A stretch of DNA of 56,008 bases, counting the filler, from Jimgerdemannia flammicorona (Eukaryota): NCBI GenBank assembly GCA_003990765.1. It is 3 parts of 3 records of this genome, joined end to end, with 100 filler letters (N's around TTAATTAATTAA, not from the genome) between each part and the next. Parts side by side here need not be neighbours in the genome. Positions count along the whole stretch, not along the records: positions 37,408 to 56,008 come from RBNJ01002166.1; 2 more parts are not named here. One strand, written 5' to 3'. Numbering within the stretch: position 1 is the first letter of the stretch; each line of letters opens with the position of its first letter. Positions 2,214-56,008 of the stretch are shown piece by piece. The notes beneath the pieces were generated by a model. It saw nothing but the letters and a program-made list of their open reading frames with translations. It ran no database searches and was not told where the DNA came from. Made by a program: the position numbers and the translations under genes.

Positions 2214-3054
2214 TCTATGATCTTGTTGTACCACTGCTCATCTGTGAGCTTGGGTGTCTTGTTCTTGTTTTTGTTCACTGAGTATATAAAGATCTCTGTA
2301 TTCTCTTCATCTCCTTTCTCTATGTCTGGTAGAACTCCTTTGTGGACATTGATAGAGACTCATACCTTTCTTCCTCTATAGTTGATCTGCATCTTCTGGG
2401 CATTGAGGTCAATGATGGCCTTGGCCTTGTGAAGTCATTGATTGCCAATGAGGATGTCATAGTTGGTGGTGTTTGTAACAATCACATCTACTGGGATAGT
2501 AGCTCCTCTTATCTTGATGGAGACTTCTCAGATTTTACCAAGAGGGGTAGCTCATGTACTATCTGCTGTGACATAGACTATCTTGGTAGACTCTTCAATA
2601 TCCCAATCTAGGTAGTCAATTGCCTTCTTGCTCATAAGGTATTCTCCAGCACTGGTATCAATGATGGCATCAAAGATATAGTCTTCAATCTGACATAGGA
2701 TATAGGCTGATGTCTTGTGCTAGTCTTTAGATTCTTCACCTGAGTTTTTGGATTCTTCCTGTACATTATGAGCTTCTACAATCTTGTACTCTTGATTCTT
2801 GGCAGTAATTGTAAGTCCTACTCTCAACTGCTGTCTGAAGGCAGGGACTTCAGCTAGTTGTCCAAAAGTGGCATTGACCTTCTGTTTCTTGAGGTCCTTA
2901 TAGATATCATACTGGTGGATCTTGGTCTTGTGCAGCTTCTGTTTCTTCTTGCTTTTACTTTCTCCTGAGACTGGAGTAGTACCTTCAATAATTTGGCAGG
3001 CAGCTTCATCTAACTCCATGTCTTGATCAATCTCCTCTGGTTGAGTCTTGCTTT

Positions 3055-4230
3055 TGTTTTACGGACTCTATATCCTGCAGATTTTTATTAGAAGGGAACC
3101 TAGACTATATAGGCCAAAACCCTCTCCCACCACCCATCAAGCACTGCCCCCCCATTAATCTAGGCTAGCTATTGTCCAGCAGCTCAACCATATCAGGTGC
3201 AGCAGGGCAAAGTAGCCCATACCTCATTTTGTACACCATGCTCTCCCTACCACCAGGGGAAACCCAGCCATATGCCAATGACTGAAAGCACATACCCGAG
3301 AACCCAATGTATGTACAAGGCTATGCCTGAGCTGAATAGAATAGCCCCTGCCACCCCAAAGAGAATGACAGGCAAAGAAAAAACCCTCATCAAAGCACAA
3401 TATGGTGGGTAGGGCCTGGTTCTCCCAGTTGAGGTGAGTAGAGGACTTACACATAAGGCGGGAGGAGACCCCCCAATACCCCACTACTCAAGCCTATAGA
3501 CCTTGATCATATTGTCATGTCAGCTCCCAGTTCTAGTTGAGTGCAGCCAAGATGTCTGAAATGGGTAGCCTTGGGCCCCCCGACCCCCCCTGATGACCGG
3601 GGCCCAACCCCACGAATCGCCAAAAGAAGCTGAGAGTGATACCTACTACCTAACCACACCACACCAATCAAAAGGCCCCACCGAAGCAGCACCCGCCCCA
3701 GCCCTGACGACTGCCCCCAGCCTGGCACCCTACTGGTTCACTATAATTGTCCTTCCTCCTATCTGTGATGGCCATCTCCCCCTCCATCCTGATATCACCT
3801 GAAAAACAGTCACCTATGCCAGAACCATGCTTGCTGGGAAGCTCGCCAAAGCCAGAGGGCCCCACTACAGGCACCGAGGACCTGCAGGTAACCTATACTG
3901 AGCACTTGATGTCCAAGGTCAGCTGACTCCCTACATAGCCCAAGACATACTGAGACAACTCCTTGTTGGTGATGGCAAAAGGAAAAAGGCGCTGCACCAA
4001 AACAGGTACACCTCAGATGTAGCTGAAGGCACCAGAATCTATAAAAAGTAGAGGAAGCACCGATCTGACACTGATAAAGGGGCAACTCAACACCATTGCC
4101 CTCCTCCCACCATACCCCTACAGGCATAGCAAACCAACCCGAGGTAGAGGGGGTAATATTAGGGGAAAGGGAACTCAGAAGGTTGCCTACCAAACCTTGT
4201 GACCAGTAAGATAGTGGAGAAAGGTGTATG
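3055..4230 (-). mobile_element. Element X copy 1: non-autonomous poly(A) retroposon (~1.15 kb)
   Basis: Homologous to four other copies in the window. Flanked by a 16-bp TSD GGTTGAGTCTTGCTTT (3039-3054 and 4231-4246). Confidence 0.9.
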
Positions 4231-5371
4231 GGTTGAGTCTTGCTTTGAATAGTGACAGCTGGAGTCTTCTTTAGTCTTCTAACTGGCTTGCTGTTGCTCT
4301 TCTTGTCATAGGGCTTGGACCAGGTTCTGGTATCTTTAGTAGTGGAGTAGAATTTGAGCTTCTCATAGTATTCTTCATCATCAGTGTCACCAATCTCCTT
4401 GATGGCTACTATATTGGTTTGTTCTCTGGTTCTGCTAGCATTGCTTAGTTGAGTCTTGTGTCTTGTTTCAGTCATGCAATTCTTTGCATAGTGGCCTTCT
4501 TCTCTATATCTGAAGTATGTAATATTGTATTCTTCTATAGCAGCTGCAAATCTCTGCACTGGTCTCCTGTTGGCACTTCAGACTTCTCTAACAACATCAC
4601 CAAGGTGTGTAGTTACCGCTTAGTGAGTTCTTCCACTAGGTCAGCTTTGGCTGCTTTGAGGATAGGTGGGGTTGATTGTCAGTTTATAACTATAGTGGAT
4701 ATAATACTAGTTGGCTTTGATGGCTCCATCTTGATGCCAGTTATTTTCTCTATTGAGTGTTCAGCAGAGTGTCTGGTAGTTCAATATCTCTATACAAAGA
4801 CCACTTTCTGATCAAGGGTCAGTGCAGCTGGGGTAGACTAGATTGCTAGGGCAATTTCAGAGTGAACTCCTTTGAGGAAGATTGAATCTGCTATTTGTTC
4901 CTTGAGGCAGTTATCATAGCCAGCCAAGACAATCTGATGGCAGATTCAGATATAGAATAAGTTGGGATCTTCACTAAGTCTCTGGCAGATAGTATTGAGT
5001 TGATCCTTGAGAGCTTGCTTGATCTCTTCAGTATAGTATGTTGTTCTGAGAAAGGCCTTCATGTTGGCAAGTTTGGCTGCACCATTATTAGCAATAGTGG
5101 CTGCATTGAACTTATCTCTGGCAGGTCCTCTGAGGCTAACTGGTAAAAGGGCCAATTGTGCATCCACACCAAGGGCTCGTACAGCAGTGAATTGTTCAAA
5201 GTCTTCAATAAAGGTCAGGATTGACTCTTCAGTAGTATATCCATAGAATGTGGGGGGATATATTTTTATCTTGTCTTGATTTCTTGCAGGGGTGACTCTT
5301 GTAGTTAGAGTAGTTGTTGTGGGAGTTGTTCATTTTTCAGCTTGAAAGTAAGGGATTTATCTTGAATCACT

Positions 5372-5386
5372 AGCCAATGGGCACCA
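5372..5386 (-). promoter_or_regulatory. Primer binding site of Gypsy family Z (TGGTGCCCATTGGCT)
   Basis: TGG-starting motif 3 nt after the LTR's CA end. Nearly identical motif at ~38301-38315. Primer tRNA not identified. Confidence 0.75.
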
Positions 5387-5389
5387 AGT

Positions 5390-6920
5390 TGTCACATAGT
5401 AATTGCTGAGTCCTTCAAATATGCCAGATTCTCTTCAAGGTGTATCTCTTAGACTAACTCAAGTTTGTTATAAGTAAGTTCTTATTGAAGTGCCTTCCTA
5501 AGGTCTTATAGTCCTCAAACTTCTTATCTTTAACTATCTTATTATCTCTTAGATTACTTGCAAGGAAGTGTGTATATTGCACTGAGAAGACTGACTTTAT
5601 TTCAGAGGAAATAAGAGAGATATTTATATAAAATATAATTCAATGGTTGCTAAGATATAAAGCTAAATATAAATTCTAATAACTAAAATAAAATACCAGG
5701 ATAAGAAAAACTGGGTTGGTACTGATGATTGTATAGGTTCAGGATGCTGGTATAATTTGATGTCATATCAGAATGCCAGTGCTGGCATTATTCAGTATTA
5801 CCAAGAGACTTAGAGCAGAATATTCAGAACTATGAGAACTTCATCATCAGAGGTCAGAATGTCTTTAAAGGAGATGAGGTCTGTGAATTCATCATAAGAT
5901 CATGCATTTCACATACTTTGTGTGCTTTGTTACATATCTCACATACTTCATATACTTTGTCATGTGTCTTGTATATGTTGTGCAGAATGATGTCATCACC
6001 GATGATGTCATCATATTTGGTAGTGGGAAGGAGGTCTAGAGCTCTCCAGTTTATAAGGTTCTCTACTACAAAATAGGGAACAAATGTGGGATCTTGGAAA
6101 GGTCTAACCTGGATGCTTGGGCCTTGGAATACTGAGATCAATCCTTGCAGGAATTGGTCTGAGTTGTTCTGAAAGATGGAGTACCAGAAGTCTTCTACTT
6201 CATCACTATTGAGAGTGATAGTAGACTGGGCTTCTATAGCCACCCTGGCTTCTAGTGTATTGATATGGCAGGATGACAGGTCTCTGAAGTCTGAGACTCT
6301 AATATACTTCAAGTTAGGGATTGATCATGGTGCATGCCTGAAGATCTGATGGATCTTCTTAGCTATCCTTACCTTACATATATCCATGGGAGTAGCATCT
6401 TATAGTTCTTGAGGGCTGGCCTGTGGGAACTCCTGGTAGAGAAGGGTTTCTATTTTGTATTCCTATCACATTTGGAGATATTCAGTAGTAATGGTAATTC
6501 TTGTTTCCATTTTGCAATGGTAGAGGATATAGTGATAAGGATCACCAGTATCCAGGTTGACACTAGGAGTCCTTCTTGAGTGAGTCCTCATAGCTTTTCT
6601 GATGTCTTGAAATATCCTCTCTTTGACTAAAATACCTTAGTAGTTCCTTGATCTTGAGGTTTGGTGAGCAGCAGACATTTCATTTGTGGTAAGTCTTTAA
6701 GCTATTTTAGGATTGGTAGGTCTTATTGGTTGCTACTACTGCAGTTCCTTGATCCTTCTTTTATATTCCTCAGAATGCTTATACTATAGTCACAATAACT
6801 CATAGTTGGTCATCATTGCTTATCTCATATGCTGTATGATCTTCTTGTACTCTGATCTGGTGGCTTACAAGGAAAGACTATCTCCTGTACTAATGTTATC
6901 ATTCTGGGGTCACCATTACA
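5390..6920 (-). repeat. 5' LTR of Gypsy family Z (1531 bp) containing a U3 ORF
   Basis: Minus strand runs TGTAA...TGACA and is followed by a PBS and gag. TATA-like TATAAATA at ~5621-5628 and AATAAA at ~5596-5601. Second copy at 38319-39851. Confidence 0.88.
5854..6678 (-). pseudogene. LTR(U3)-encoded hypothetical protein, family Z (~275 codons, premature stops)
   Basis: ATG at 6678 is in frame with track ORF 5854-6312. TATAAAAG lies ~80 nt upstream. Internal stops are TAA/TGA/TAG, explicable by single C>T changes. Homologous reading in copy 2 (~38832-39610). Confidence 0.72.
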
Positions 6921-13894: not shown

Positions 13895-15364
13895 TATAAG
13901 AGGGTTACTTTTTAGAGTAACTATTACATAGTTCTGGAAGAGTTTTCTGGAAGTTCTGGATATTCTGGAAGACTGTTTTCTTGTGGTTAAGATCAATTTC
14001 ATATGGAGTACATCCTTTATGCTTATTGATTTCAAGATCAGGTTGACATCTTAACCAAAGTCCTTTTTTGGACTAGTTCTGGATATTCAGGATTTTCCAT
14101 ATTTCAGAAAGTTCAAGAAACTAAGACCAGCTTAATTGAATTGGTGTATTGCTGCAGACAATACCCAATTAGGAAATTTTGTGATAGGGTTAGGAGTGAG
14201 ACCTAATAGAGAGCAGATTTACTTAAGAGTAGTTTATGAATTATTAAATAGGTTTATTTACTATTCATAATATTGCTATACTAGGAGTAGTTGTATGAAG
14301 GAATATTGTGGAAAGTGCTTAAGAGTTGTGTTTGGATTGTTCAGGTCTGAGATTCTGAGGTCTGGGGGAGGGAGTATTTATACTAGTGAGGGGCTATCTG
14401 GACTATACTAAATATGGATGTAGTACTAAGTGCCTTGCTGAGTCGAAATGTAGTCACATAGTATAAGTGTGATCTGACATGTCAAGAGATCATCTGACTG
14501 CTGAGTCAGTTCACAGTCATATCATACAAGACTAATCTAACTATACTATAGCTACTAAGTCTGGTTAGTCTTTGATGACATCACTATTGATAACATCATT
14601 GCTAGCAAAGTCTGAGTAGTTTCTGACTTCTGATATTATTAGTTTTCAAGATGTTATTACTTCTATCTCTTGCAAGATTAAGACTGTCCTTAGTAGCAGT
14701 AGTTGTATAAAGATAACAGGTCTTGGTTCTCTTTTTTTTTGGTCTTCTGGCACATTTGCGAGGACTGGCCATCCTTGTCTAGGGTGAGAGCTCCCAATGT
14801 CACAGCTGGGGGTTTGAACCTCTCAGAAATGATATTTTCTATAATCTGAGGCAATTTCTAGTAGTAATATCTGTCACATAGATGGCTTGAGATTGGTTTT
14901 GATGATGTCAGCTTTCTTGAGTTCAGATGAAGCATCTGTCACTCTCCAACAGAGGTGACACAGATAGAGTGAACAGAGTTGTTCAAATGTATTTTACTTC
15001 TACTAAGTAATGAGGTCTTGTATAGTTGTGATGTATCTTAGTCTTGAGTTGATAAGTACAGTTTGTGAACCTTTTGATGGGTGAGATAGGGTTCTTCTTG
15101 TCTTGATTCAATTTTAGTACTTTTGGTTTCTTTTTGTAATAGTACAGTACACCAAACTAGTTATAGCAGTTCAGAGTCAGTCTTATGATTATAGTACTTC
15201 TTCTAGTATTCTTGTATCTTAGTGGTAGGTTCTTGTACTTGCTGGCATATTTCATGTAACCAGATGATCTCTTCAGTAACTTGTTTTGTAGTCTTGCATA
15301 TAGTTTTCAAATTAGTTCTGAGGATGACATACAATTTTGGTGGCTTAGAGGTTGTGCACTTACA
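13895..15364 (-). repeat. 3' LTR (1470 bp); R/U5 shared with family Y LTRs, U3 different
   Basis: Terminal inverted repeat T(G>A)TAAG...CTTACA directly after the PPT. 13895-~14600 aligns with 26890, 28488 and 54127; 14600-15364 does not. Confidence 0.82.
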
Positions 15365-26889: not shown

Positions 26890-28487
26890 TGTAAGAGGGT
26901 TACTTTATTAGAGTATCATTATATAGTTCTGGAAAGATTTTCTGGAAGTTCTGGATGTTCTGAAAGACTATTTTCTTTAAGATCAAGATCAATTTCATAT
27001 AGAGTATATTCTCTATACTTATTGATTTCAAGATTAGGTTGATGTCTCAACCAAAGTCTCTTTTTGAATTATTCTGGATGTTCAGAATTTCCTGTATTTT
27101 AGAAAGTTCAAGAAATAAAGACCAGCTTAGTTAAATTGATATATTGCTGTAGATAACACTTAATTAGGAAATTTTGGGATTTAGTTAAGAGTGAGATCTA
27201 ATGGAGTACAGATTTACTTAAGAGTGGTTTGTAGATTTTTAAATAGGTTTATTCACTATTTATGATATTACTATACTAGGAGTAGTGTGTGAAGAGATAT
27301 TTATATTGAGAAGTATTCTTGACTTGTTTGTCTATATTTTTCTATCTGTTCTGTCTAAGTTTCTAAGGTCTGAGAGAATTGGTATTTATACTAATGAGAG
27401 GCTATCTAGACTATACTGAATATGGATATAGTACTTTGTACTTTGATGAGTCAGAATACAGTCATATAGTATAAGTGTGAACTGAGATATCAAGAGATTA
27501 TCTGACTGATAAGTCAGTATGCAATTATATAGTATAAGGCTAATTTAACTATACTAATAACAACTAAGCTATCTATAGATTTAGACACAATCTGGATATT
27601 ATTTAATGAGGTTACTATCAATGATATTATCTCTGATGAAGTAGTTGTCTAAGAAGAGTGATTCTTGAATTATATCTTTTTGTTTATTTATGTAGTAGTA
27701 GGTTGAAACTATATTGCTATCTCACAAGATAGCATTATCTATCTTATATGCTGGATAGGATATTGGTGGGCAAAGAAAGGATATATTATCTTCACTTTTA
27801 TCAGATTTGCTATCAGTTTACCTTTGGTAGATTATGATACTATGTGTTACAGAGTTGTAGTATACTAGTGGCTGTAGTTCATTTTATTCATACTCAGGAG
27901 GTAGAATTGTTGGTTTGATCTCAAGAGTTGTTTAGAGATATAGGTTATGTTCTTTATTCTCTTCATTATAGTTGAAGTAATTAGATATAAATATAGGTTA
28001 GTACTCATACTAGTGGTCATTATCTCAATAGGTCTCATAAGCAGTTATGAACTATTGTAAGTTCATTGATAAGATTGGCAGAGTGATCAGAATTGGTAGA
28101 GATTCTTGGCTAGAGGTCATGTGAGCATCAGAGAGATCATTATCTTCTGCTTCATAATTATTGAACTGGATTATATCATAGATATTCTTCATGGTATATT
28201 CAACTTAGGACATTTGTAAGATATAATCATCAGAGTACAGAAAGAGTCTATCTGTAGTTTGGGCATACTCAATATACTTATAGTTGAGTTCTTATATAAT
28301 ATTTTCAATTTAGCTATAGGACAGAATGACAACTATTTCAGTGATAGTATCTCAGAGGTGGAGAATAAAGTACTGTACTTATAGAAGAGTTCTCAGTACT
28401 TGTAAGTAATGAGTTTCTAGTGTTAAAACATTTCAGTAATATTAGCATCATAGTAATGGCTAACTATATCTTCTAAGAGATAACTAA
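26890..28487 (-). repeat. Family Y LTR, partial and heavily decayed; interrupted by another family Y LTR
   Basis: Begins TGTAAGAGGGTTAC on + and is collinear with 54127-55715. Confidence 0.85.
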
Positions 28488-31437
28488 TGTAAGAGAGTTG
28501 CTTTTTATGGTAACTGTTATATAGTTCTGAAAGGGTTTTCTGGAAGTTCTGGATATTCTGGAAGACTGTTTTCTTCTGGTTAAGATTAATTTCGTATATA
28601 GTATGTCCTCTATACTTATTGATTTCAAGATTGGGTTGACGTCTCAACCAAAGTCTTTTTTTGGACTAGTTCTGGATGTTCAGGATTTTCTATATTTCAG
28701 GAAGTTCAAGAAACTAAGACCAGCTTAGTTGAATTAGTATATTGCTGCAGACAATACCCAATTAGGAAATTTCATGATGAGGTTAGGAGTGGGACCTAAC
28801 AGGGAGCAGATTTACTTAAGAGTGGTTTGTGGGTTATTAAATAGATTTATTTGCTATTCATGATATTGCTATACTAGGAGTAGTTGTGTGAAGAGATATT
28901 GTGGGAAAGTGCTCAGGAGTTGTGTTTGGATTGTTCTGGTATATTTGAGTCTGAGATTCTGAGGTTGTATTTATACTAGTGAGGGGCTATCTGGACTATG
29001 CTAGATATAGATGTAGCACTTAGTGCCTTGCTGAGTCAGAATGCAGTCACATAGTACAGGTGTAATCTGATATATCAAGAGATTGTCTGACTGCTGAGTT
29101 AGTTCACAGTCATATTGTACAAGGCTAATCTAACTATACTATGACTGCTAAGCTATTTATAGGTTTAGATGCTGTCTGGGTAGTCTTTGATGACATCACC
29201 ATTGATTGCATCATCTCTGATGAAGTAGTCATCTAGAAAGAGTAGTTCGTAGATTACTTCTTCTTATTTTTTTTTTTTTTTTTTTTTTTTTTAACAGACT
29301 CAAGTTCTGCAGATTTTTATTGGAAGGGAACCTAGACAATATAGGCCAAAACCCTCCCCCACCACCCATCAAGTACTGCTCCCCCATTAATCTAGGCTAA
29401 CTATTGTCCAGCAGCTCGACCATGCCAGGCGCAGCAGGGCCTATATTGGCCCACACCTCATTCTATGCACCATACTCTCCCTACCACCAGGGGAAACCCA
29501 GCCATATATCAATGACCAAAAGCACATGCCTGAGAACCCAACATATGTACAAGGCCATACCTGAGCTAAATAGAATAGCTCCTACCACCCTAAAGAGAAT
29601 GATAGATAAAGAAAAACCCTCATCAAAGCACAACATGGTGGGTAGGGCCTGGTTCTCTCAGTCGAGATGAGTAAAGGACTTACATGTGACGTGGGAGGAG
29701 ACCCCCAATACCCCACTACTCATGCCTGCAGGCCTTGATCACATTACCATATCAGCTCCCAGTTCCAGTTGAGTGCAGCCAAGATGCTTGAAATGGGTAG
29801 CCTCGGGCCCCCCGACCCCTCCTGGCAACTGGGGCCCAACCCTGCTGACTGCCAAAAGAAGCCGAGAGTGACACCTACTACCTAACCATACCACACTAAT
29901 CAAAAGGCCCCACCAAAGCAGCACCTGCCCCAGCCCTGATGTCTGCCCCCAGCCTGGCACCCTACTGGTTCACCGTTATTGTCCTTCCTCCTATCTGTGA
30001 TGGCCATCTCCCCTCCCATCCTGACAACACCCAAAAAGCAGTCACCTACACCAGAACCGTGCTCGCCAGGAAGCTCGCCAAAGTCAGAGGGCCCCACCAC
30101 AGGTACCGAGGATCTGCAGATAACCTATACTGAGTACTTGATGCCCAAGGTTAGCCAACTCTCTACATAGCCCAAGATACACTGAGACAGCACCTTGTTG
30201 GCGATGGTAAAAGGAAGAAGGCACTGCACCAAAATGGATGTACTCCAGATTTAGCTGAAGGCATCAGAAACTGTGAAAAAGTGGAGAAGACACCAATCTG
30301 ACACTAATAAAGAGGTAACTTGTCACCATTGCCTCCCTCCCACTGCCCTGCAACAGGTACAGCAAACCAACCCAAGGTAGAGGGGGTAATAATTGTGGAA
30401 AGTGAACTCAGAAGATTGCCTACCAAACCATTGTGACTAGTAAGGTAGCGGAGAAAGGGGATGGATTACTTCTCCTTGTTCCTAAGGTAATAATACATTG
30501 GAACTTCATCACCATCCCACAGAATCACATCATCTGTCTCATATACTGGATAAGGTGTTGGTGGGCAAAGGAGTGATGTATCATCTTCACTTTCATTGAA
30601 TTCGCTGTCTGCATACCTTCTATAGGTTATAGCACTATGAGTTGCAGGGTTGTAGTAAGCTGGCAGCTGTGGTTCATGTTGCTCATACTTGGGTGGCAGA
30701 GTTGTTGGTTTGATCTTGAGGGTTATCTGAAGATACAGGTTGTATTCTCCAGTCTCTTCATTGTAGTTGAAGTAATCAGGGGTAAATGCGGGTTAGTATT
30801 CATACCAGTGGTCATTGTCCCAATAAGTCTCGTATGTGGTTATGAACTGTTGTAAGTTCATCAGTAAGGTTAGTGGTGTGATCAGGGTTGGCAGGGATCC
30901 TTGGCTTGAGGTCATGTTAGCATCAGAGGGATCATTGTCTTCTGCTTCATCGTCATCGAATCAGATTATATTGTAGATATCCTTCATGGCGTATCTGACT
31001 TGAGGCATTTGTAGGATATGGTTGTTGGGATGTGGGAAGGTTCTGTCTGTGGTCTCAACATACTCAAGGTACTTGTGATTGAGTTCTTGTATCATGTCAT
31101 TGATTTGGCCATAGGACAGAGTAGTAACCATTTTGGCAGTAGTAACTCAGAAGCAGGGAATAACAGTGCTATACTCATAGAAGAGTTCTTGATGTTTACA
31201 GGCAATGAGTTTCTGGTGTTGAGACATCTGAGTGATGTCTATATTGTAGTGGTGTTCGACCATATCTTCTAGGAGGCAGCCAATCTGATAGTAGCTTGAG
31301 ATTTGTCCAATTCGGTGGGTCTCGCTAAGCATGTTCAGGGCATTCCATCAGGCTTCCACAAAGTAGAGAGGTGCTAAGCTATGGATATTCATGAGGGGCA
31401 GAGGGGGTGTGGCTTGGTTGACAATGGTATTCCAAAT
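28488..31437 (-). repeat. Family Y LTR with U3 ORF remnant, interrupted by element X and then by a LINE
   Basis: TGTAAG terminus at 28488. Collinear with 54127-55866 once 29269-30463 is removed. Confidence 0.87.
29269..30463 (-). mobile_element. Element X copy 2
   Basis: Poly(T) at 29267-29292. ~17-bp TSD GATTACTTCTYCTTRTT (29252-29268 and 30464-30480). The uninterrupted site is visible at ~54893-54908. Confidence 0.9.
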
Positions 31438-33557: not shown

Positions 33558-33587
33558 AGATTGATTGACAGCATAACATCTTCTAAT

Positions 33588-36500: not shown

Positions 36501-37244
36501 AGCACTCCTTTAATTGAGTTCGACATTGGGGATGGAATGGAATACCAAAGGGGACCAGGCCAGGATCTGTGGCCTAGCGGGTGGCAAGGAGTTGGAATTG
36601 GCGAAGAGTGGAATTGGTATGGTGTTTGGACCTGGAGTGCTGCAGTGAGAAAGTGGATGCCACCAAAGTACTGGGTGGTCTGGTGGCGCATACTGCAGAG
36701 GAATGTTATGCTCAACTTTCGCTCAGGGCACCTTGTCGTAGGGGGTTGCTTCAACTGTGATGAGTGCCATAATGTAGGGCAGAAGGGGGGTTATGTACAG
36801 ATGCCTGAACATTGGCTAGGAGAGTGTGAGGTGTTGGGGGATTTTTGGCGGACAATTGGGGAACATTTGGGGGTACAGCATCGGGGAGATGAAGTACAGG
36901 GGAGGTGGGAGAACTTGAGGGATAGATTGGTAAGAGAGATGGGGAAGGAGTGGCTTACTTTGGGTTGGGCTTTGGCTATTTGAGTGGGGCTGGCCAGTCA
37001 TTGGCTATTTGTTTTTGAGGATGGGAGGAGACAGGGCTTGGGAGACTGGTTGTTGTGGTGGCATAGACTTATGGAAGACACTTTAACAGGCTGGTGGCTG
37101 GGTTGGGGGCTGCAGGGTGGTCAGAGGCACCGCTTAGTGGAGAAAATTTGTGGGCAGAGTGGGGGGAGAGTTAGAGTAGTTGGTGAAAGGGTGATTTTTA
37201 TTCGTGAGGAGGTGGGGAGGGGCCCCCCTATGGGGATTGGGTAG
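33588..37244 (+). pseudogene. LINE ORF2: APE endonuclease, reverse transcriptase and C-terminal Zn-binding region (6 premature stops)
   Basis: SLNVNGL, GGDFN, RIDW and SDH (APE); QRGFV, LDQEK.YD, GVPQGDPL and AFADD (RT); CDEC...EHWLGEC. All track segments lie in the same frame. Confidence 0.95.
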
Positions 37245-37307
37245 TGGGTAGTGATGTTGTATACTTATTCATAGACTGGTAATAAAGGCAGAGTCCAAGT
37301 GACTATA

Positions 37308-37407
37308 NNNNNNNNNNNNNNNNNNNNNNNNNNNNNNNNNNNNNNNNNNNNTTAATTAATTAANNNNNNNNNNNNNNNNNNNNNNNNNNNNNNNNNNNNN
37401 NNNNNNN
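37308..37407. other. Scaffold gap (N44-TTAATTAATTAA-N44 linker)
   Basis: Run of N containing an artificial linker. Confidence 0.97.
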
Positions 37408-38195
37408 ACCGAGCCATAGGGACCACAACCCCGCCAACCATCACCCCCTTTTCCATGGCTGCCAACAAGGCATCTTCCTCCTCGAACCCCACTTCAACCC
37501 CTTCCTTCCCCCTCAAAAACTTCACCGACGCTGCTCCCCTAGCCTCCTGCGCCACCAGCCCCAAAATCATCCTTGACGTCACTGCTAAGCCCCAGAAGCA
37601 CATTGTGACTGCAAATTCGGACCTCGACTTCTTGAGTAACGGGGCTGACACTATGCCCATCACCCCATCCGCCAGGTCCCTGGGCCTCGTGCCCACTCCA
37701 AGTCCCGAATTGCCAACTGCTGTCACATCTGGATTTTTTGCCAGATCCCCAGTCACAGCCCCATCAACCGTCACATCTCCAGCCCCTACTCCGGCCTCTT
37801 CCCTACCACCAGAAGTACCCTGGGGTGCACCTCCTTGACCCCCGGTAGTAGCCATCGACGCCTTCCCCAGGCCCAGCCAACTATCCAGCCCAGAAGCCAT
37901 TGCCCCCATCCTGACCTTGTCAGCAAAGGTCGTCCTCTCCCCTCCTCTCTGCCTCAGACCTCCCCTCCCTCTGCCACTGGGGCCCTGGCTAGCCATCGAG
38001 GCCCCTGGCATCCCCAAACCATCTCCCCTCCTCCCCACCTGCTGCCAGCCAAAGGCGCCGCCACCCCCCTGGCCAGTACGCTCATCAGATCGATCGTTGC
38101 CGTCTATGTTGTTAGTCATTGGACACCAAAAACATTGTAGAAAGTGTTGTCTGAGTCTTGTGTAACCTGAATGTTACTGGAGAAAGATGCGCAGA
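37408..38195 (-). mobile_element. 5' part of an L1/Tx1-type LINE (5' UTR and open ORF1 N-terminus); relatively young subfamily
   Basis: ORF from 38119 is open to the gap and homologous to ORF1 at 31527. It retains many CpGs. 5' UTR CATCTTTCTCCAGTAACATTCAGG. Confidence 0.9.
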
Positions 38196-38200
38196 AGACC

Positions 38201-39851
38201 TGTCTTGAATTCTTACAAGAGTGACTCTTGTAGTCAAGGTAGTTATTGTGGTGATTGTTTGTTTTTCAGCTTGAAAGTGAGGGATTTGTCTTGAATCACC
38301 AGCCAATAGGCACCAAGTTGTTATGTAGTGATCACTGAGTCCTTCAAATATGCCAGATTCTCTTCAAGGTATATCTCTTAGACTAACTCAAGTTTGTTTT
38401 AAGCAAGTTCTTATTGGAGTACCTTTCCAAGGTCTTATAGTCCTCAAACTCCTTATCTTTAAACTGTCTTGTTATCTCTTAGATTGCTTGCAAGGAAGTG
38501 TATATATTGTATTGAGAGGAACTGACTTTATTTCAGTAGAAATAAGAGGGATATTTATACAAAATATAATTCAATGGTTGCTAAGATATGAAGCTAAATA
38601 TAAATTCCAATAACTAAAATAAAATACTAGGATAGGAAAAACTGCTAAGTTCCAGGGTTGGCACTGTTGGTTGTATAGGTTCAGAATACTAGTATAATTG
38701 CAGTAGTACAGAAAAATAGTACTGGAATAATTCAGTGTCACATCAGAATACCAGTATTGGTATAATTCAGTATCACTAAAGAACTTTAGAGTAGAATGTT
38801 CAAGACTATAGGAGCTTCATCCTCATCAGAGGTCAGGATGTCTTCAAAGGAGATGAGGTCTATAAATTCATCATAATTACATAGGTCACATATTTCATAT
38901 ATATCATACAGGATGACATCATCACCAATGACATCATCACATTTGGCAGTGATGAGAGCAAGGAGGTCTGGGGCTCTCCATTCTATGAGGTTCTCTTCTA
39001 CAAAATAGAGGACAAATGTGGGGTCTTAGAGAGGTCTAACCTAGATACTTGGGTCTTTGAATACTGAGATCAATCCTTACAGGAATTGGTCTGGGTTGTC
39101 CTGGAGGTTGGGATACCAGAAGTCTACTACTTCATTACTATTGAGGATGATAGTAGGCTGGGCTTCTGTAGCCACCCTGGCTTCTAGTGCATTAATACAG
39201 TAGGCTGATAGATCTCTAAAGTCTGAGACTCTGATATACTCCAAGTTGGGGATCGATTATGGTACATGTCTGAAGATCTGATGGATCTTCTTAGCTGTTC
39301 TTGTTTCATATATATTCATGGGAGTGGCATCTTGTAGCTCTTGAGTACTGGCCTATGGGAACTCCTGATAGAGGAGGTTTCTTATTTCATACTCCTGCTA
39401 TATTTAGAGGCATTTGGTAGCAATAGTGATCCTTGTTTCCATTTTATGGTAGTAGAGGATAAAATGATAAGGGTCATCAGTACCCAGGTTAACACTAGGA
39501 GTCCTTCTTGAGCAGGTCCTCATAGCTCTTCTGATGTCTTAGAACATTCTTTCTTTGACTGAGGTACCTTAGTGGTTCCTTGACCTTAAGGTTTGGTAAG
39601 TAGCAGGCATTTCATTTATAGTAAGTCTTTGAGCTATTTTGGGATTAGTGGGTCTTGTTGGTTGCTGCTACTGTGGTACTTAATCCTTCTTTTATATTCC
39701 TCAAGATATCTATACTGTGGTCACAATGACTCACAGTTGGTCATTATTGCTCATCTTGGATGCCATATAATCTTCTTGTACTCTGATCTGGTGGCTTGTA
39801 AGGAAAGACTGTCTCCTATACTGATGTCATCATTCTGGGATCACTGTTACA
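38201..39851 (-). mobile_element. Gypsy family Z copy 2: 5' LTR (38319-39851) with U3 ORF, PBS and start of gag
   Basis: Collinear with 5272-6920. TGTAAC start at 39851. PBS TGGTGCCTATTGGCT. Confidence 0.9.
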
Positions 39852-47499: not shown

Positions 47500-48400
47500 G
47501 TCAAGAAGATATATATTTATTAATTTTTACTTCTACAAAGTAGCTGCTTGCTTGATGCTATATAGTCCTTTATATAGTTTATATATTAGATTTTTTTTAA
47601 CTATTATTTACTTCATAGCCTTGTAACTAATAAATATATAATTATATATTTATATTATTATTGAATAGTGCTCCTAATAAATCAATTTAATCTGGATTGG
47701 ATTTGGATTGATTTGGATTGAATCCCATCCAGATGGATTTGAATCAACCATTGATTTGATTTCCAAATTAGACAATTAAATGTTTACATCAATAACTTGA
47801 TGAATAATCATCTAAATTTGATGATCTTAGAGTCATTTAAAAGCCCTTAATAAGGCCTATCTAATGATACCAAGAACATTGGAATCGGATTATGCGTTGC
47901 TGAGTTATTAAGGAAACCATCTGAATTGCCAATTTTGGAAATTATTTGATTTGCTGATTTTGGAAATTTCATCTAATAGAATGTTTTCCTTAATATCTTG
48001 GCAATGCGTAATCCAATTTTAATATTCTTGGTATCATTAGAAAGACCTTATTAAGGACTTTCAAATGATACCAGAATTATCAAATTTAGATAATTATTTA
48101 TTGAGTTATTGATATAAATATTTAATTGTCTAATTTGGAAATAAAAACAATGGTTGATTCGAATCCATCTGGATGGGATTCGAATCCCATCCAAGTTGAT
48201 TCAGGTGGGATTCGAATTACATCTGAATCCCATCTGGATTAACTCATTCAGAGTACTATTATTGAGAAATACTATCTTTATATATATCTAATAGATCTCC
48301 AAATCATATATAATATTGATTGCAAAAAGTATTCCAAGTAAAGTAAGCTTAAATATAAAAGAAAATATCTCATTATTATCTATATATATTATAATTCTAT
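47500..48400 (-). mobile_element. Decayed Copia pol fragment hosting a MITE
   Basis: 47545-47585 is the reverse complement of the Copia KLYKGLYSIKQ region at ~40330-40370. The part right of the MITE is only weakly recognisable. Confidence 0.5.
47666..48258. mobile_element. hAT-type MITE (593 bp) with a long internal inverted repeat
   Basis: TIR TAGTGCTC/GAGTACTA and 8-bp TSD TTATTGA(A/G) at 47658-47665 and 48259-48266. ~200-bp inverted arms at 47720-47917 and 47984-48181. Confidence 0.8.
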
Positions 48401-48555: not shown

Positions 48556-51192
48556 AAACAAACTGGCTGGGTGATGAAGCCCATGTTCATGGTTCGTCTT
48601 AACGCCAAGCCGTTCTATCGCGAAAACTACGACGCTCTAGTGGTCCGCCTATCTAGCCTGTATGATCGGGTGCGCTTGAGAGGCAAAGCGCACGGCGGAG
48701 ACGCGTCCGCAGGCGGGAAGCAGGCTGCATTTGTGAGGCAGACTACCAAGTATTGGTGAGTGGAGGAACGGTGTTTTGTTGCCAATTGGGGAAACCGGAA
48801 CGTTGCGTTCCTCATGTGTGGAATGCTCGGTTGATGCGGGAGTGATAGGAAGCCAAAAGATTGAATGGAATACAGATTGATTTGCAAAACGCAACAAATT
48901 GAGCAAGCGTAAATTGAAATATCGGCGACATTCTCGGATCACCATCATTTCATTTGACTCACACCTACATGCCACCTTGTCCCTCATCCTGATCGCACCC
49001 AGGGTTCATGCCGACAACATCACGGAGCTCAAACTTATCATCCTCAAGCATCTGCCTGTGCTGGTCTTCAACCCGAACAAGCAGTTTGACGCGCAGGACT
49101 CGGCCATCACCAGTATCTACTTCGACAACGACGACTTCCAATTGTATCTAGGCAGGCTAGAGAAGAGTGAGGGGGCTGAGGCGATTAGGCTGAGGTGAGG
49201 AGGCGGGTCTCAGAAAAGCAAATTGGCGCGGTTCAGAGAAAGCGATTAGAACGCTCAAGAAGAGGGTGGTTACATTTTCGAGGATAGTTGCTGCCTTTAT
49301 ACGGGGAGGGATTGTTTCCCCTACACGAACTGGGAAACTCATATTCCCGTTTCCGAAACCTAACCCTTATTTGTGGATCCTTTACGCTACTTATCAGATG
49401 GTACGGCGGTATGAGCAATAACGAGATCTTTGTGGAGCGCAAGACACACCGCGAGGACTGGACCGGCGAGAAATCGGTGAAGGCACGGTTTCCACTAAAG
49501 GAAAAGTACGTCAACCCCTTCCTCCGCGGGGAGTACACGATGGAGCCCGCGTTCCAGAAGATGCGCGAGGCAGGAAAGAAGTCGGAGAAAGAAATTGAAC
49601 AGCTCGAGCAGCTGGCACAGGAGGTGCAGTATTCTATGATAACGAGAGAATTGAAGCCGGGTAGGTAGTTTGGGAAGGGATTTCCCGGTAATGTATATTG
49701 AGAATGTGGTAGAGTCTCCACACGGGATGTGGAAATTGTGGCGATAGGGTAGATGTTTGTTTACTGGTAGCGCACGATATTTACCACGGTGTTTGACTTA
49801 CTTTAATCGTTGTTTGCTCTCGTACCCAATTATTCCTACTCCTAGTCGTCCGCTCCTTCTATAACCGCACCGCCTTTCAACTCCCTGGCGACGCGCGCGT
49901 CCGCATCAGTCTCGACACGGAGCTCTCCATGATTCGAGAAGACAACTATGACGGCAGGGAACGATCCGGTGACAACTGGCGCCGGATGGACATTGGGATT
50001 GACTACCCGTTCTCGCAGCTGCCCGATTCCGACATTTGTAGGTTTCCTTACGCCGTACTCGAGGTGAAGCTGCAGACCCAATTTGGTCAGGAACCACCGG
50101 AATGGGTGACAGAGTTAATCCATAGCCATTTGGTGAGCTTTTTTTTTTTTTTTGATATATCGTCTGATTATGTTTTCTGTCCTCGCAAATGAACCAAAAC
50201 TCACATTTGGCACCATAGGTCGAAGCCGTTCCCAAGTTCTCCAAGTTCATACATGGCGTCTCCACACTCCTCGAAAATCGCGTACAACTTCTCCCTTTCT
50301 GGCTCCCCCAGATGGACATCGACATCCGGAAACCGCCCACCACTTCCTTTGGCCTTGGCCGCCCTAGAGATGGCGGCAACACTTCCATCGCCGCTGCTCC
50401 GTATGGTTCTAACTCGTCAGACAGTAGCAAAGTCGGTGGCAGTAGCCGTGGCTCGGAACCGGACATTCAGGTTGTGATCGACCAACGATCCTCCGACGAA
50501 AGGGCTCCTCTGCTGGGAGCGACTGGCACGAACGGGAACGGTCCCACGCTTATTGAGGAGGGCGGTATTATGAAGCAGCTCTCTCCAGCAGGTCTGCGCA
50601 ACCTTTTCCACAAGTCCAAGTCCGCCTTCACACGCCGTCCTGCCAATTACTCCTCTATCTCACCTGGCGGCGGCCAGGGCAACGGAACGGCCAAGTCCGT
50701 GCCGGAGCATCCTCTCCCACCAGGAAAACGCATCGCCCTCCCTGTGCGCGTGGAGCCCAAGGTCTTTTTCGCCAACGAACGCACTTTCCTCTCTTGGCTA
50801 CAGTTTTCCGTCATACTCGGAGGTCTTGCTGTGGGACTGCTTAATTTTGGCGATCAGATCGGCCGCATCTCCGCCGCAATGTTCACTTTCGTGTCCATGA
50901 GCGTGATGGGCTATGCATTGTATACATTCCATTGGCGGGCTGATCACATAAGGAGGAGAGATGCTGGACCATACGATGATCGCTTTGGACCAACCGCATT
51001 GTGCACGTTTTTGATATTGGTCGTTTTGATCAATTTCTATCGTAAGTAATCGAGATCGGAAATTCGGAAATTCGTTATCGTTTGGAGTTATTCGATGTGT
51101 CGAACACTGGTGGGAATCTCTATTGACCTGATTTGCTTTGTTTTTACTCCCTAGTGCGCCTTTCACACCCCAAGAATCCTTCGAACATTTGA
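48556..51192 (+). CDS. VTC4: Vacuolar transporter chaperone 4 (polyphosphate polymerase), 5'-partial; join(48556..48755,49003..49194,49398..49660,49846..50132,50219..51041,51155..51192), 600 aa
   Basis: [104 protein letters not shown] and three TM helices match fungal Vtc4. All five introns are GT-AG, phases are compatible, and there are no internal stops. Confidence 0.96.
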
Positions 51193-51519: not shown

Positions 51520-51552
<33 letters not shown>

Positions 51553-51704
51553 GGACTCAAAGTCTCGCGGATTTTTATTGGAAGGAAACCTAGACTATAT
51601 AGGCCAAAACCCTCCCCCATTACTCACTAAGCACTACACTCCCATTAAACCTAGACTAGCTATTGTTCAACAGCTCAACCATGTCAGGTGTAGCAGGGCA
51701 AAGT
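51520..51704 (-). mobile_element. Element X copy 4, only the 3' ~155 bp plus poly(A)
   Basis: Poly(T) at 51520-51549 followed by the same 3' sequence as the other copies. Confidence 0.85.
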
Positions 51705-51845: not shown

Positions 51846-51884
<39 letters not shown>

Positions 51885-53135
51885 GACTCAATGTCCTGTG
51901 GAATTTTATTGGAAGGGAACCTAGACTGTATAGGTCAAAACCCTCTCCCACCACCCACCAAGCACTGCCTTCCCATTAACCTAGGCTAGCTATTGTCCAG
52001 CAGCTTGACCATGCTAGGTGCAGCAGAGCCAATAGAGGCCCACACCTCATTCTGTGTACTATACTCTCCCTACCACCAGAGGAAACCCAGCCATATACCA
52101 ATGACTGAAAGCATATGCCTGAGAACCCAATGTATATACAAGGCCATGCCCGAGCCAAATAGAATAGCCCCTGCCACCCCAAAGAGAGTAACAGACAGAA
52201 AAAAAAACCCTCATCAAAGCACAATATAGTGGGTAGGGCCTGGTTCTCCCAGTCAAGATAAGTAAAGGACTTATATATAAGGCAGGAGGAGACTCCCAAT
52301 ATCCCACTACTCAAGCCTGTAGGCCTCGATCATGTTGCCATGTCAGCTCCTGGTTTCAGTTGAGTGCAGCCAAGATGCCTGAAATAGATAGCCTCAGGCC
52401 CTCTGACCCCTCCTGATGACTGGGGCCTAATCTGCCTGACCGCCAAAAGAAGCCGAGAGTGACACCTATCACCTAACTACACTGCACCAATCAAAAGGCC
52501 CCACTGAAGCAGCACCTGCTCCAGCCCTGACAGCTGCCCCCAGCCTGGCACCCTACTGGTCCACCATAATCGCCCTTCCTTCTATCTGTAATGGCCATCT
52601 CCCCTCCCATCTTGACAATACCCAAAAAGCAGTCACCTATGTCAGAACTGTACTCGCTGGGAAGCTCACCAAAGCCAGAGGGCCCCACTATAGGTACCAA
52701 AGACCTGCAGGTAATCTATACTGAGCACTTGATGCCCAAGGTCAGCTGACTCCCTATGTAGCCTGAGACATACTGAGACAGCACCTTGTTGGTAATGATA
52801 AAAGGAAGAAGGTACTGCACTAAAACAGATGTACTCCAGATACAGCTGAAGGTATCAGAAACTATGAAAAAGTAGAGAAGACACCGATCAGACACCAATA
52901 AAGGGGTAACTCAACATCATTACCCTCCTCCCACCATGCTCATGCAGGTACAGCAAACCAACCCAAGGTAGAGGGGGTAATAATAGGAGAAAGGGAACTT
53001 GGAAGGTTGCCTACCAAACCTTATAACCGGTAAGATAGCAGAGAAAGTGATTGGACAGCATTGTTGTATACAAACTCTGTATAAGTCAGATAGTAGTCCC
53101 AATCATCTTGCTCATAAAAAACATAGTTTCTAAGT
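51705..53135 (-). pseudogene. Gypsy integrase fragment interrupted by element X
   Basis: With X removed it reads LRNYVFYEQDDWDYYLTYTEFVYNNAVQS then (frameshift) PFWLLHSQDPETP, typical of the end of the Gypsy integrase core. Confidence 0.72.
51850..53051 (-). mobile_element. Element X copy 5
   Basis: Poly(T) at 51848-51880 and 11-bp TSD TGGACAGCATT (51839-51849 and 53052-53062). Confidence 0.92.
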
Positions 53136-53140
53136 CTGGT

Positions 53141-54126
53141 ATCTTTCTCAGCTACCATTCATATTATACACACTTTTACAACATACTTTCAAATTGTTTA
53201 TTGGAGAAAGGTACTAAGGCAATGGCAAACAGTAAGTAATCTGGGGTGTATACTGGGCAGGGCAGCTCTAGTATGTTCAACTGGCAGTAAGTGGAGAGAG
53301 GTCCTGGCCTGGGGGGGGGCATGAGGGGGCTGTTGGCAGGAGGATATAGAGGGAGAGGAGGCAGCAGTGGAGGACAGAGGTCTGGGAGAGCGAGCTTATG
53401 GAGATGGTGAAGGAGAGGCAGCAGACATCTGGGTTAGAGGGATGGCTGAGGAAAGGCAAGGAGATGGAGAAAACAATAGTTTGTAGAGGAGTAGCCCTTG
53501 GTGGTGAGGGCAGTAGAGCTGGAAGAGTAGTGGCTGGAGGGAGTATGACAGCTGATAGCAATAGGACTACCAATCTGGAAAAAAATCCAAATATGACTGC
53601 TGATAGTATGACTGAGTGACTGGGGATTAGAAGACAAGGTGATTTGGCAGATGGTGTGACAGGCCTGGTGGTAGCTTTATTACTTAAGAAATCGATCTCA
53701 GCATTTGCAGTGACATTGTACTTCTGGATCTAGCAGTGATAGTGAAAATGGTACTGGGGCTTATTACTAAATAGGTAGCTGGAGCAGTATTCATAAAGTT
53801 CCTGAAAATATTAGAGGGAGTGGAGGTGGGCTTTGAGGAGACTGAGCCTTTGGAGAAAGTACTGAAGGTTGGATTGATAGTTGGGGAGGTGTGTGTTTCG
53901 ATGGCATGCTGTCTGAAATGGGACCCCAGGGTGGTCCAACTGCTAGTAAAAGGAGTGCCCACAGTGATGGCAGTAGAGATAAGAAGGAGAGTTGAGGAGG
54001 TCATGGTGGAGTATAGAGAGGTGGTAGATATCAGATTCAGAGTCTAGGAAGGGACCTCACTCAGGACTAGAGATGTGGATGTGAGGATTCAGCTAGCAGG
54101 AAAAGAAGCTACCAGGAAGGCAAGGG
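53141..54126 (+). mobile_element. 5' part of an L1/Tx1-type LINE (5' UTR and ORF1), interrupted by a family Y LTR
   Basis: Collinear with 31446-32439. ORF1 ATG at 53222. Confidence 0.9.
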
Positions 54127-56008
54127 TGTAAGAGGGTTACTTTTTACGGTGACTGTTATGTAGTTCTGGAAGGGTTTTCTGGATATTCTGGATGTTCTAG
54201 AAGACCGTTTTCTTATGGTCAAGATTAATTTCATATGGAGTACATCCTCTATGCTTATTGATTTCAAGATTGGGTTGACGTCTCAACCAAAGCCCTTTTC
54301 TGGACTCGTTCTGGATGTTCAGGATTTTCTGTATTTTAGAAAGTTCAAGAAACTAAGACCAGCTTAGTTGAATTGGCGTATCGCTGCAGACAATACCCAA
54401 TTAGGAAATTTCGTGATGTGGTTAGGAGTGGGACCTAACAAGGAGCAGATTTACTTAAGAGTGGTTTGTGGGTTATTAAATAGATTTATTCGCTATTCAT
54501 GATATTGCTATACTAGGAGTAGTTGTGTGAAGGGATATTGTGGGGAAGTGCTCAGGAGTTGTGTTCGGATTGTTCAAGTCTGAGATTCTGAGGTCTGGGG
54601 GAGGCGGTATTTATACTAGTGAGGGGCTATCTGGACTAGGCTAGATATGGATGTAGCACTAAGTGCTTTGCTGAGTCGGAATGCAGTCACATAGTACAAG
54701 TGTGATCTGACATGTCAAGAGATCGTCTGGCTGCTGAGTCAGTTCACAGTCACGTCATATAAGGCTAATCTATCTATACTATAACTGCTAGACTATTTAT
54801 AGGTTTAGGCACTATCTGGGTAGTCTTCGATGACATTACCATTGATTGCATCATCTTTGATGAAGTAGTTGTCTAGGAAGAGTGGTTCGCGAATTACTTC
54901 TCCTTATTGGCTGAGGTAGTAATACATTGGGACTTCATCTCCATCCCACAGGATAGCATTGTCTGTTTCGTATGCTGGATAAGGTGTTGGTGGGTGAAGG
55001 ATGGGTGTATTGTCTTTGCTTTCATCAGATTCACTATCTGTGTACCTTCTATAGGTTACAGCACTATGAGTTGTGGGGTTATAGTATGCTGGTGGCTGTG
55101 GTTCATGTCACTCATACTTGGGTGGTGGAGTGGTTGGTTTGATCTCGAGGGTTGTCTGAAGGTACAGGTTGTGTTCTCCAGTCTCTTCATTGTAGTTGAA
55201 GTAGTCAGGGGTGAACGCGGGTTGGTATTCGTGCCAGTGGTCATTGTCCCAATAAGTCTCATATGCTGTTATGAACTGTTGTAAGTTCATCGGCAAGGTT
55301 GGCAGAGTGATCAGGGTTGGCAGAGATCCTTGGCTAGAGGTCATGTCGGCATCAGAGGGATCATTGTCTTCTGCTTCATCTTCATCAAAGTAGATTATAT
55401 CGTAGACGTCCTTCATGGTATATCCAACTTGAGGCATTTGCAGGATGTGGTCATCAGGGTGCAGGAAGGTTCTGTCTGTGGTTTCGACATACTCGAGGTA
55501 CTTGTGGTTGAGTTCTTGTATCATGTCATCGATTTGGCCGTAGGACAGGGTGGCAACCATTTCGCTGGTAGTGACTCGGAGGCAGGGAATAAAGATATTG
55601 TACTCATAGAAGAGTTCTCAATGTTTGCAGGTGATGAGCTTCTGGTGTTGAGACATCTGGGTAATGTCTGTATCATGGTGGTGTTCGACCATGTCTTCTA
55701 GGAGGCGGCCAATCTGGTAGTAGCTTGAGATTTGTCTGATTCGGTGGGCCTTGCTAAGCATGTTCAGGGCATTTCATCGGGCTTCCACGAAGTAGAGGGG
55801 GGCCAGGCTATGGATATTCATGAGGGGCAGAGGGGGTGTAGCTTGGTTGACAATGGCATTCCAAATGTCAGCATGGATGCGGTTGTAGATCTCAGTGGTC
55901 ATGTTTGTGTGTTTGGAAGTTGTGGTTGTTGTTTGTTTTGGTTCTCTGATTCGATGCGTCTCGGTGCTCAGTATATATGCATTTGGTCCTGATTGGTAAG
56001 GTTCCGTT
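54127..56008 (-). repeat. Family Y LTR (>1.88 kb, runs off the window), best-preserved copy
   Basis: Ends ...CCTCTTACA on the minus strand. TATAAATA at ~54608-54615 and AATAAA at ~54485-54490. Same terminal ~700 bp as the PPT-defined LTR at 13895-15364. Confidence 0.83.
54904..55902 (-). pseudogene. LTR(U3)-encoded hypothetical protein, family Y (~333 codons, three TGA stops)
   Basis: ATG at 55902 (MTTEIYNRIHADIWNAIV...) is in frame with track ORF 55108-55560. TATATA lies ~70 nt upstream. The stop at 55108 is CAA in the copy at ~30680. Acidic, Pro-rich C-terminal half. Confidence 0.75.

Follow-up and report, generated by a model that had tools for sequence, protein, structure and literature searches.

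The superantigen gene sag of mouse mammary tumour virus (MMTV), whose product is a type II membrane glycoprotein, is an open reading frame (ORF) contained wholly within U3 (the unique 3' region) of the long terminal repeat (LTR), and the tas/bel genes of spumaviruses and the nef gene of lentiviruses are 3' accessory genes that extend into U3, the foamy viruses having in addition an internal promoter and an acidic transactivator. Extra ORFs of LTR retrotransposons are likewise known, mostly without an assigned function; to our knowledge, an ORF inside the LTR has hardly been described outside retroviruses, and phrase searches for LTR-located ORFs in retrotransposons returned no relevant paper, which is a weak basis for novelty. 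The present analysis concerns a stretch of 56,008 nucleotides, filler included, from Jimgerdemannia flammicorona (GCA_003990765.1; hereafter the window), in which two families of repeats, Y and Z, each carry an ORF next to LTR-type signals; an earlier note on this DNA had described both ORFs as borne by LTRs and their proteins as related. The Y ORF at the right-hand end of the window is, on balance, best explained as one copy, now mutated, of the accessory gene ('additional ORF') that belongs to a Ty3/gypsy-like LTR family and is distantly related to that of the Z family, and the gene at this position is real, selected and undescribed.

When compared with MMTV sag, the Z ORF would have in common a coding sequence inside U3, so that each LTR contains it and the genomic RNA carries it at the 3' end; nevertheless, there is no sequence relation, the Y and Z proteins are acidic and have no evident membrane segment, and the host is a retrotransposon rather than a retrovirus. 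The Y ORF, provided that the Y LTR is short, would resemble tas/bel and nef in lying between pol and the 3' LTR and in overlapping the polypurine tract as well as the beginning of U3, and it recalls tas/bel in particular by its own TATA-like box and its acidic C-terminal half, although no env gene is present here and transactivation by the Y product is only conjectured. According to one review (PMC12786077), LTR retrotransposons with additional ORFs (aORFs) are found among plants, fungi, and animals; another review is devoted to those of plants (PMC7264820), and in a survey that deals with fungal chromoviruses (PMC2864245) the legend of a figure has the term 'add. ORF'. The likeness of the ORFs discussed here to such aORFs consists in an extra ORF beside gag-pol in a Ty3/gypsy-type element, upstream of gag in Z and, if the Y LTR is short, downstream of pol in Y. 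They differ in that the Z ORF would lie inside the LTR, upstream of a site resembling a primer-binding site (PBS), an LTR-internal placement for which three plain wordings are each absent from the plant review (PMC7264820), and in that neither the Y nor the Z protein falls into any Pfam family. A further comparison is offered by the dUTPase-bearing fungal chromoviruses (Postia, Phanerochaete, and Tuber), for which the survey (PMC2864245) gives three locations of the dUTPase, the N-terminus of Pol, its C-terminus, and the interval from protease to reverse transcriptase (RT), while its passages on the subject mention no ORF at the LTR; the gypsy-like element of the window here called G-B, which is related to the Y family, shares the dUTPase, but carries it between a CCHC knuckle and the protease.

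Evidence for a Former Gene in the Y Repeats

Self-comparison of the window recovered the Y repeat copies that had been reported to begin, in plus-strand coordinates, at 26890, 28488, and 54127 (here Y1, Y2, and Y3), and added a fourth, partial copy at 13895-14754. All of the Y peptides quoted earlier were found again, in a minus-strand ORF (Table 1). In Y3 this ORF, for which a span of 54904..55980 had been given, is real, but the lower limit of 54904 is a premature TAA and not the true end, which lies further on: 32 further codons past 54904 are present in copy Y1 and in the intact homologue P0005, up to a shared ...YPDS end. Given its in-frame stops, the Y3 copy of this accessory gene is a pseudogene, and the product predicted for the ORF is an acidic protein of about 365 residues, without a known domain and previously undescribed. 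An ATATATA motif at 55978-55972 stands upstream of the Y3 ATG, with 64 bp from the end of the box to the ATG, and the window ends 106 bp upstream of that ATG. The layout of TATA box, ATG, ORF, second TATA box, and poly(A) signal that had been ascribed to both families is only partly observable: the order of signals is the same in Z, while in Y the upstream TATA and the ATG are visible only in the copy at 54127.

The differences between Y3 and Y2 are unevenly distributed over codon positions 1, 2, and 3 of the ORF (43/18/74, of about 324 sites each; chi-square about 35 with two degrees of freedom, by our arithmetic), as compared with 21/20/29 for the three position classes of the non-coding part. 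Homologue P0005, which derives from another sample and was the one match among 453 candidates in a search of 5.8 billion proteins, is intact, comprises 247 amino acids, is 65% identical over 62% of the Y query, and ends at the same ...YPDS. On account of the codon-position bias between copies and of this intact homologue, the Y ORF is regarded as a former gene, and the pattern of substitutions indicates that it was a real coding gene, under selection while the family spread. A search with a profile of the Y alignment, which was confined to its 254 C-terminal positions, gave four matches, of which only P0005 is real; P0009-P0011, being repeat proteins, were rejected as Y homologues. Y-related loci were found in none of the 339 pattern stretches from JGI metagenome contigs and in none of the 134 from IMG/VR.

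Table 1. Coordinates of the Y and Z features and of the mobile elements and other sequences around them, as positions in the window.
Feature	Position	Strand	Details
Y ORF, copy Y3	ATG 55902-55900 to TAA 54807-54805	minus	365 codons; four in-frame stops (TGA, TGA, TGA, TAA)
TATA-like ATATATAC upstream of Y3 ORF	55966..55978	minus	consensus match only; CA-rich leader follows
Y3 non-coding 3' part	54127..54804	minus	TATAAATA 54615-54608; AATAAA 54489-54484; terminus CTCTTACA at 54127
Candidate polypurine tract and candidate 5' end of short Y LTR	54915..54947	minus	GGGATGGAGATGAAG 54947-54933, then TGTATTAC 54926; inside ORF
Copy Y2	28488..31437	minus	ORF cut 36 bp past ATG by a long interspersed nuclear element (LINE) at 31440
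Copy Y1	26890..28483	minus	5'-truncated within ORF at ...IGRLLED...; lacks about the first 60 codons
Terminal repeat of G-B	13895..14754	minus	89% identity to last ~660-700 bp of Y3; retains last ~35-40 ORF codons only
Z1 LTR	5390..6920	minus	1,531 bp; TGTAAT...GTGACA; TATAAAA 6765, TATATAAATA 5630, AATAAA 5599
Z1 ORF	ATG 6678 to TAA 5810	minus	carries stops and a frameshift
Z1 PBS-like TGGTGCCCATTGGC	5373..5386	minus	3 nt past LTR end (ACA + ACT + TGGTGCC); gag ATG 5333, 50 bp on
Z1 internal region	2230..5333	minus	gag-like and degenerate CCHC (both by eye), repeat W at 3052-4234, aspartic protease; cut by LINE at ~2215
Z2 LTR with ORF	38319..39851	minus	ORF 39610-38786; PBS-like 38302-38318; first gag codons; cut by LINE at ~38200
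Element G-B	about 18600-13895	minus	gag, CCHC, dUTPase, protease, then pol C-terminal motif (by eye)
dUTPase domain of G-B	16350-16790	minus	E 2.1e-26
Retroviral-type protease	15500-16130	minus	RVP_2 E 7.4e-10
Second retroviral-type protease	within 2230-3049	minus	gag-asp_proteas E 2.4e-7, RVP_2 E 1.3e-5
LINE copies	25-2215	minus	
	7135-12680	plus	
	18705-24309	minus	
	31440-37307	plus	
LINE fragments	37477-38190	minus	
	53143-54126	plus	
LINE-type endonuclease and RT	33822-35885		Pfam, RVT_1 E 4.5e-25
Repeat W	3052-4234, 29261-30465, 51849-53055	plus	
	41107-42300		inverted
	near 51542-51701		partial
VTC and DUF202 gene	48881-51046	plus	several frames
Inverted repeat	47720-47920 / 47981-48181		201 nt, 86% complementary, 60-nt spacer

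An Open Reading Frame Inside the Probable LTR of Z

The Z family is represented by two copies, Z1 and Z2, which start sharply at TGTAA(T/C), at 6920 and 39851, and have unrelated, AT-rich upstream flanks. Termini of the form 5'-TG...CA-3', a TGG PBS-like site, and a gag downstream are found in Z1 and are conserved in the second copy; the PBS-like motif TGGTGCCCATTGGC occurs in the window only at the two Z copies, and by eye a single TGG-type site, at the very start of the LTR, lies between the Z 5' end and the ATG. As the ORF is situated between the 5' end of the element and the PBS-like site, upstream of a TATA/AATAAA pair, it probably lies in the U3 of a 1.5-kb LTR. The term 'LTR-borne' is accordingly apt for Z, whose ORF stands between the TGT at 6920 and the PBS-like TGG and is followed by gag and a retroviral protease, but for Y such a location is slightly less likely than not.

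The Z1 and Z2 frames contain 12 and 15 stops, respectively, per 341 codons read. Single-sequence and profile searches together yielded seven Z homologues, with 58-100% identity to the lead sequence of the profile (P0006), and three full-length homologues are 67-74% identical to Z1. The glycine that the earlier note had reconstructed in the Z motif 'EYEIGNLL' is present in three intact homologues. One Z homologue is labelled 'hypothetical protein' by its source. Z-related loci were absent from the pattern stretches searched in JGI metagenome contigs (0 of 243) and in IMG/VR (0 of 125). A single interrupted element made up of Z2, the LINEs, and Y2 was considered and rejected, its two ends being of different families.

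The Terminus and Extent of the Y LTR

The same terminus, CTCTTACA, is found in the four Y copies, each with a different flank, so that the 3' CA of Y is fixed by four copies; no Y 5' end is visible in the window. Since this shared terminus also closes G-B, with its gag, CCHC knuckle, dUTPase, and protease, it is interpreted as that of an LTR element. Inside Y2, positions 29261-30465 are an insertion of W, a 1.2-kb poly(A) retroposon, with a target duplication of 14-15 bp. Y1 begins in mid-ORF, directly behind the TACA that ends Y2, and also abuts the catalytic DSG motif of a retroviral-type protease; such a start, without a poly(A) tail, makes it unlikely that the 5' truncations arose in the manner of LINEs, and the head-to-tail arrangement with truncation fits the nested insertion of one LTR element into another. 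A junction of the kind formed in 2-LTR circles was ruled out for Y2-Y1, as Y1 starts in mid-ORF.

It is nevertheless conceivable, if very improbable, that the Y repeat is a separate mobile unit (of a non-LTR, 5'-truncated type) or a captured host gene that merely adjoins gypsy fragments, given that its 3' end is fixed and its 5' ends are variable, that two copies stand head to tail, and that no Y copy has a PBS or a gag after its end. Its 3' end, however, is TACA, LTR-like and without a poly(A) or simple-repeat tail, and an element with gag, CCHC, dUTPase, and retroviral protease is closed by these same 700-860 terminal bp; the variable 5' ends, for their part, are explained by visible later insertions (the LINE at 31440, and that of Y2 in Y1) or because the window stops there, and the head-to-tail pair by the nested insertion described above.

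The position at which the Y LTR begins was approached through the homology of G-B and Y3, with purine/pyrimidine coding used to remove the dominant transitions. Alignment in this coding traces the homology to 14739 / 54905 (4 of 300 shuffles reach the score), and the homology breaks at a TGT at 14754 / 54926, about 120 bp before the stop of the Y ORF, where both sides read CAA(A)-TGT. Further upstream, the 14760-15300 segment of G-B shows no homology to Y3 anywhere in the ORF region or in the 106 bp that precede the ATG, the score being equalled by 300 of 300 shuffles. Apparent MAFFT colinearity upstream of the break and G-B/Y block matches seen by eye were dropped, being unsupported in plain as well as purine/pyrimidine scoring. 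With the candidate polypurine tract and TGT listed in Table 1, a candidate Y LTR of 800 bp would have TGTA...TACA termini. The sequence comparison thus slightly favours a Y LTR of only about 800 bp over a longer one, with the ORF mostly internal, which is the outcome named beforehand as speaking against an LTR-borne ORF.

A long Y LTR of about 2 kb or more, with the whole ORF in U3 as in Z and with the repeat of G-B as a deletion derivative, is a serious though less probable competitor. The order of signals is the same in Y and Z, the ORF of Z, with which Y has weak protein homology, lies upstream of the PBS-like site, the ORF and the terminal region are contiguous in all three ORF-bearing Y copies, and Y1 has no TG at the candidate start of the short LTR. 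A deletion derivative should, however, retain the 5' end of the LTR, and the 450-540 bp of G-B upstream of the break are unlike any part of Y3, including the 106 bp before its ATG, which counts against this alternative; moreover, the break falls at a TGT after a purine-rich tract, yielding TGTA...TACA termini, and the 5' end of a long LTR is nowhere visible in the window.

Relationship Between the Y and Z Proteins

The absence of DNA similarity between Y and Z, as asserted earlier, is corroborated by blastn, which finds none. The claim that the two proteins align by eye fared less evenly: the same colinear stretch was found independently by hhalign and HMMER, but its significance is weak. The profile-profile comparison by hhalign, proposed earlier as a check, recovered the suggested alignment over 105-108 columns at 19-21% identity, with E values of 0.082 and 0.032 from very shallow profiles and with an aligned part that extends toward the N-terminus, but the probability attached to it by the program was low. 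A hidden Markov model (HMM) built from eight Z-family sequences was applied, with filters off, to the six-frame translation of the window in 560 chunks and had the Y3 ORF as its best non-self match (E 0.0041, model positions 7-141 on residues 29-161; next E 0.94); the score was reached by 1 of 5,000 shuffles of the whole Y ORF and, when only the first 175 residues were shuffled, by 0 of 10,000. The part in common comprises about 105-135 colinear N-terminal residues, and the remainder of the proteins is not alignable. Judged by these scores, the alignment is weakly above chance, and the N-terminal stretches of about 105-135 residues are probably truly homologous.

A number of observations weigh against an accessory gene shared by the two LTR families, and they are best considered together. 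BLASTP of Y against Z gave nothing significant (best E 0.46 and 0.68); the hhalign probability was 0.7-1.6%; the reverse search with the Y HMM, a model of only two sequences, reached Z at E 2.3 and 6, again colinearly; in Smith-Waterman comparisons of four pairs, 1, 33, 177, and 318 of 1,000 shuffles attained the score; and for sequence that is helical and of biased composition a null obtained by shuffling is lenient. Differences between Z1 and Z2 are distributed 44/31/52 by codon position, a weak bias only; that both ORFs are real genes of retroelements is supported by the codon-position bias between copies and by the intact homologues. Both Z copies are 5' ends, and the window contains no 3' counterpart to either; a scan of the window found 0 transfer RNA (tRNA) genes to which the PBS-like TGGTGCCCATTGGC might be matched; and the promoter boxes are consensus matches only. 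At the candidate Y boundary, the polypurine tract and the TGT are separated by 6 nt, and Y1 reads CCT, not TGT. Finally, because neither family has an element with two LTRs here, no LTR boundary is proven by a pair of repeats.

Part of this evidence would be expected if the Y and Z ORFs were unrelated, each family having gained an extra ORF near U3 on its own and the alignment reflecting composition and helical periodicity; this alternative is unlikely, yet by no means negligible. It accounts for the negative BLASTP and the low hhalign probability, for the failure of the Y HMM to find Z, for the two of four Smith-Waterman pairs that are no better than shuffles, and for the C-terminal two thirds that cannot be aligned. 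It agrees less well with the rank of Y, which comes first among the non-self chunks for the Z HMM and scores higher than 9,999 of 10,000 or more shuffled sequences, with the single colinear alignment, beginning near both N-termini, that three methods give, and with the position and flanking signals, which are alike in both families.

Protein Features and Proposed Function

The acidic tails noted earlier in both proteins were borne out (isoelectric points of 4.05-4.64, with net negative C-terminal halves). The first 60 residues of Z are net positive and Arg-rich, and the C-terminal halves of Y and Z alike are strongly negative, with hydrophobic-acidic motifs. With a curated cut-off or E < 0.001 as the threshold for membership in Pfam and for a match in PDB, six proteins had no credible Pfam match (only E 0.026-0.11, far below the cut-offs), and PDB gave 0 sequence matches at E up to 10. 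AlphaFold2 run on eight Z sequences produced no confident fold (mean predicted local distance difference test (pLDDT) score 35.8), with helices predicted across the first ~185 residues. An Atlas search with Z returned no neighbour scoring at least 0.9 (best 0.83), and the stored ESM model of P0007 has a pLDDT of 0.35.

In both families, the gene would adjoin an LTR promoter: a TATA-like box, the ATG, and the ORF come first, followed by the LTR TATA, AATAAA, and U5. With the whole Z gene within a 1.5-kb LTR, every LTR copy would carry the gene, whereas the Y gene would, slightly likelier than not, follow pol and precede the 3' LTR, and its last ~40 codons, together with the polypurine tract, would overlap U3. 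As the two arrangements differ only in the location of the polypurine tract, they can be homologous: a shift of the tract to a position upstream of the 3' gene would place the gene in U3, and hence in both LTRs. Transcription would presumably proceed from the gene's own upstream TATA, with use of the LTR poly(A) signal. The composition of the protein and its position beside the LTR promoter are the grounds for a doubtful suggestion, namely that it is an acidic regulator, which acts either on transcription of the element itself or on its silencing by the host; such a regulator would combine an N-terminal part that is helical (and in Z has an Arg-rich patch) with a hydrophobic-acidic C-terminal half. 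Similarly speculative, and improbable as matters stand, is a self-contained cassette of promoter, ORF, and LTR terminator, in or across the U3 of fungal-type chromoviruses, that encodes a new family of acidic regulators, so old that its members in different element lineages have diverged past the reach of BLAST. Such a cassette would be copied with every LTR and kept in solo LTRs, its product might switch on the element's own LTR or blunt host silencing, and it would be for retrotransposons what accessory genes of the sag, nef, or tas kind are for retroviruses.

If Y and Z constitute one family kept by diverged elements, a role in the life cycle of the element would be implied. Thousands of LTRs and solo LTRs, now masked or annotated as 'hypothetical protein', might in that case represent potential protein-coding units, and the two families would demonstrate a move of the polypurine tract that carried a 3' accessory gene into the LTR.

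Mobile Elements and Other Features of the Window

Nested remains of mobile elements fill the window, in which Pfam searches of 99 ORFs detected the LINE-type endonuclease and RT, the dUTPase, and the VTC and DUF202 gene of Table 1. Retroviral-type proteases are encoded twice on the minus strand, with CCHC knuckles nearby (zf-CCHC profile E 5e-4 to 5e-3); of the domains expected of Ty3/gypsy-like host elements, protease and CCHC were detected by profile, and the RT, integrase, and chromodomain motifs by eye only. No Pfam match to RT, integrase, or chromodomain was obtained in 24300-26900 or 15200-15520, though RT motifs are visible by eye in 24300-26900. The RT-to-integrase part of G-B has been lost. 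At 17900-18600 on the minus strand, G-B also contains a near-open frame, in which an acidic stretch (DQTEEEEEYLSEL) leads in frame into gag; this acidic frame spans ~230 codons upstream of the capsid-like part and is cut by the N run at 18605, and six-frame window searches with the Y and Z profiles gave no match to it.

The LINE family, with endonuclease and RT, comprises at least four diverged copies (64-74% identity, GC content 46-54%, strong strand GC skew). The N runs at 18605-18704 and 37308-37407 (two pairs of 44 N; filler joins) coincide with two LINE 3' ends. Copies of the 1.2-kb repeat W are 84-86% identical to one another, end in a poly(A) run, and are flanked by target duplications of 11-15 bp; they have inserted in a gag, in the Y2 ORF, and in an integrase, and no conserved coding frame was found among them. 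W looks like a non-autonomous poly(A) retroposon moved by LINEs.

In all repeat families, 80-91% of the copy-to-copy differences are transitions (C/T, G/A), as in the comparison of 54127-55866 with 28488-31437. Premature stops are mostly TGA, TAA, and TAG derived from CGA, CAA, CAG, and TGG. By its base-change spectrum, the excess of transitions is a signature of the kind left by repeat-induced point mutation (RIP) or by deamination of methyl-cytosine. Several stretches of the window (26-28 kb and 40-48 kb) have a GC content of only 25-32%. Parts of the window are present in 20 listed sequencing runs, including soil metagenomes (best share 0.33) and, among those listed, no RNA run, from which no claim as to habitat or expression is drawn.

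The sole clear cellular gene in the window is a host gene of the vacuolar transporter chaperone (VTC) type with a DUF202 domain; as it is split across several frames, it probably contains introns. Just upstream of it stands the 201-nt inverted repeat, which could be a hairpin or an element similar to a miniature inverted-repeat transposable element (MITE).

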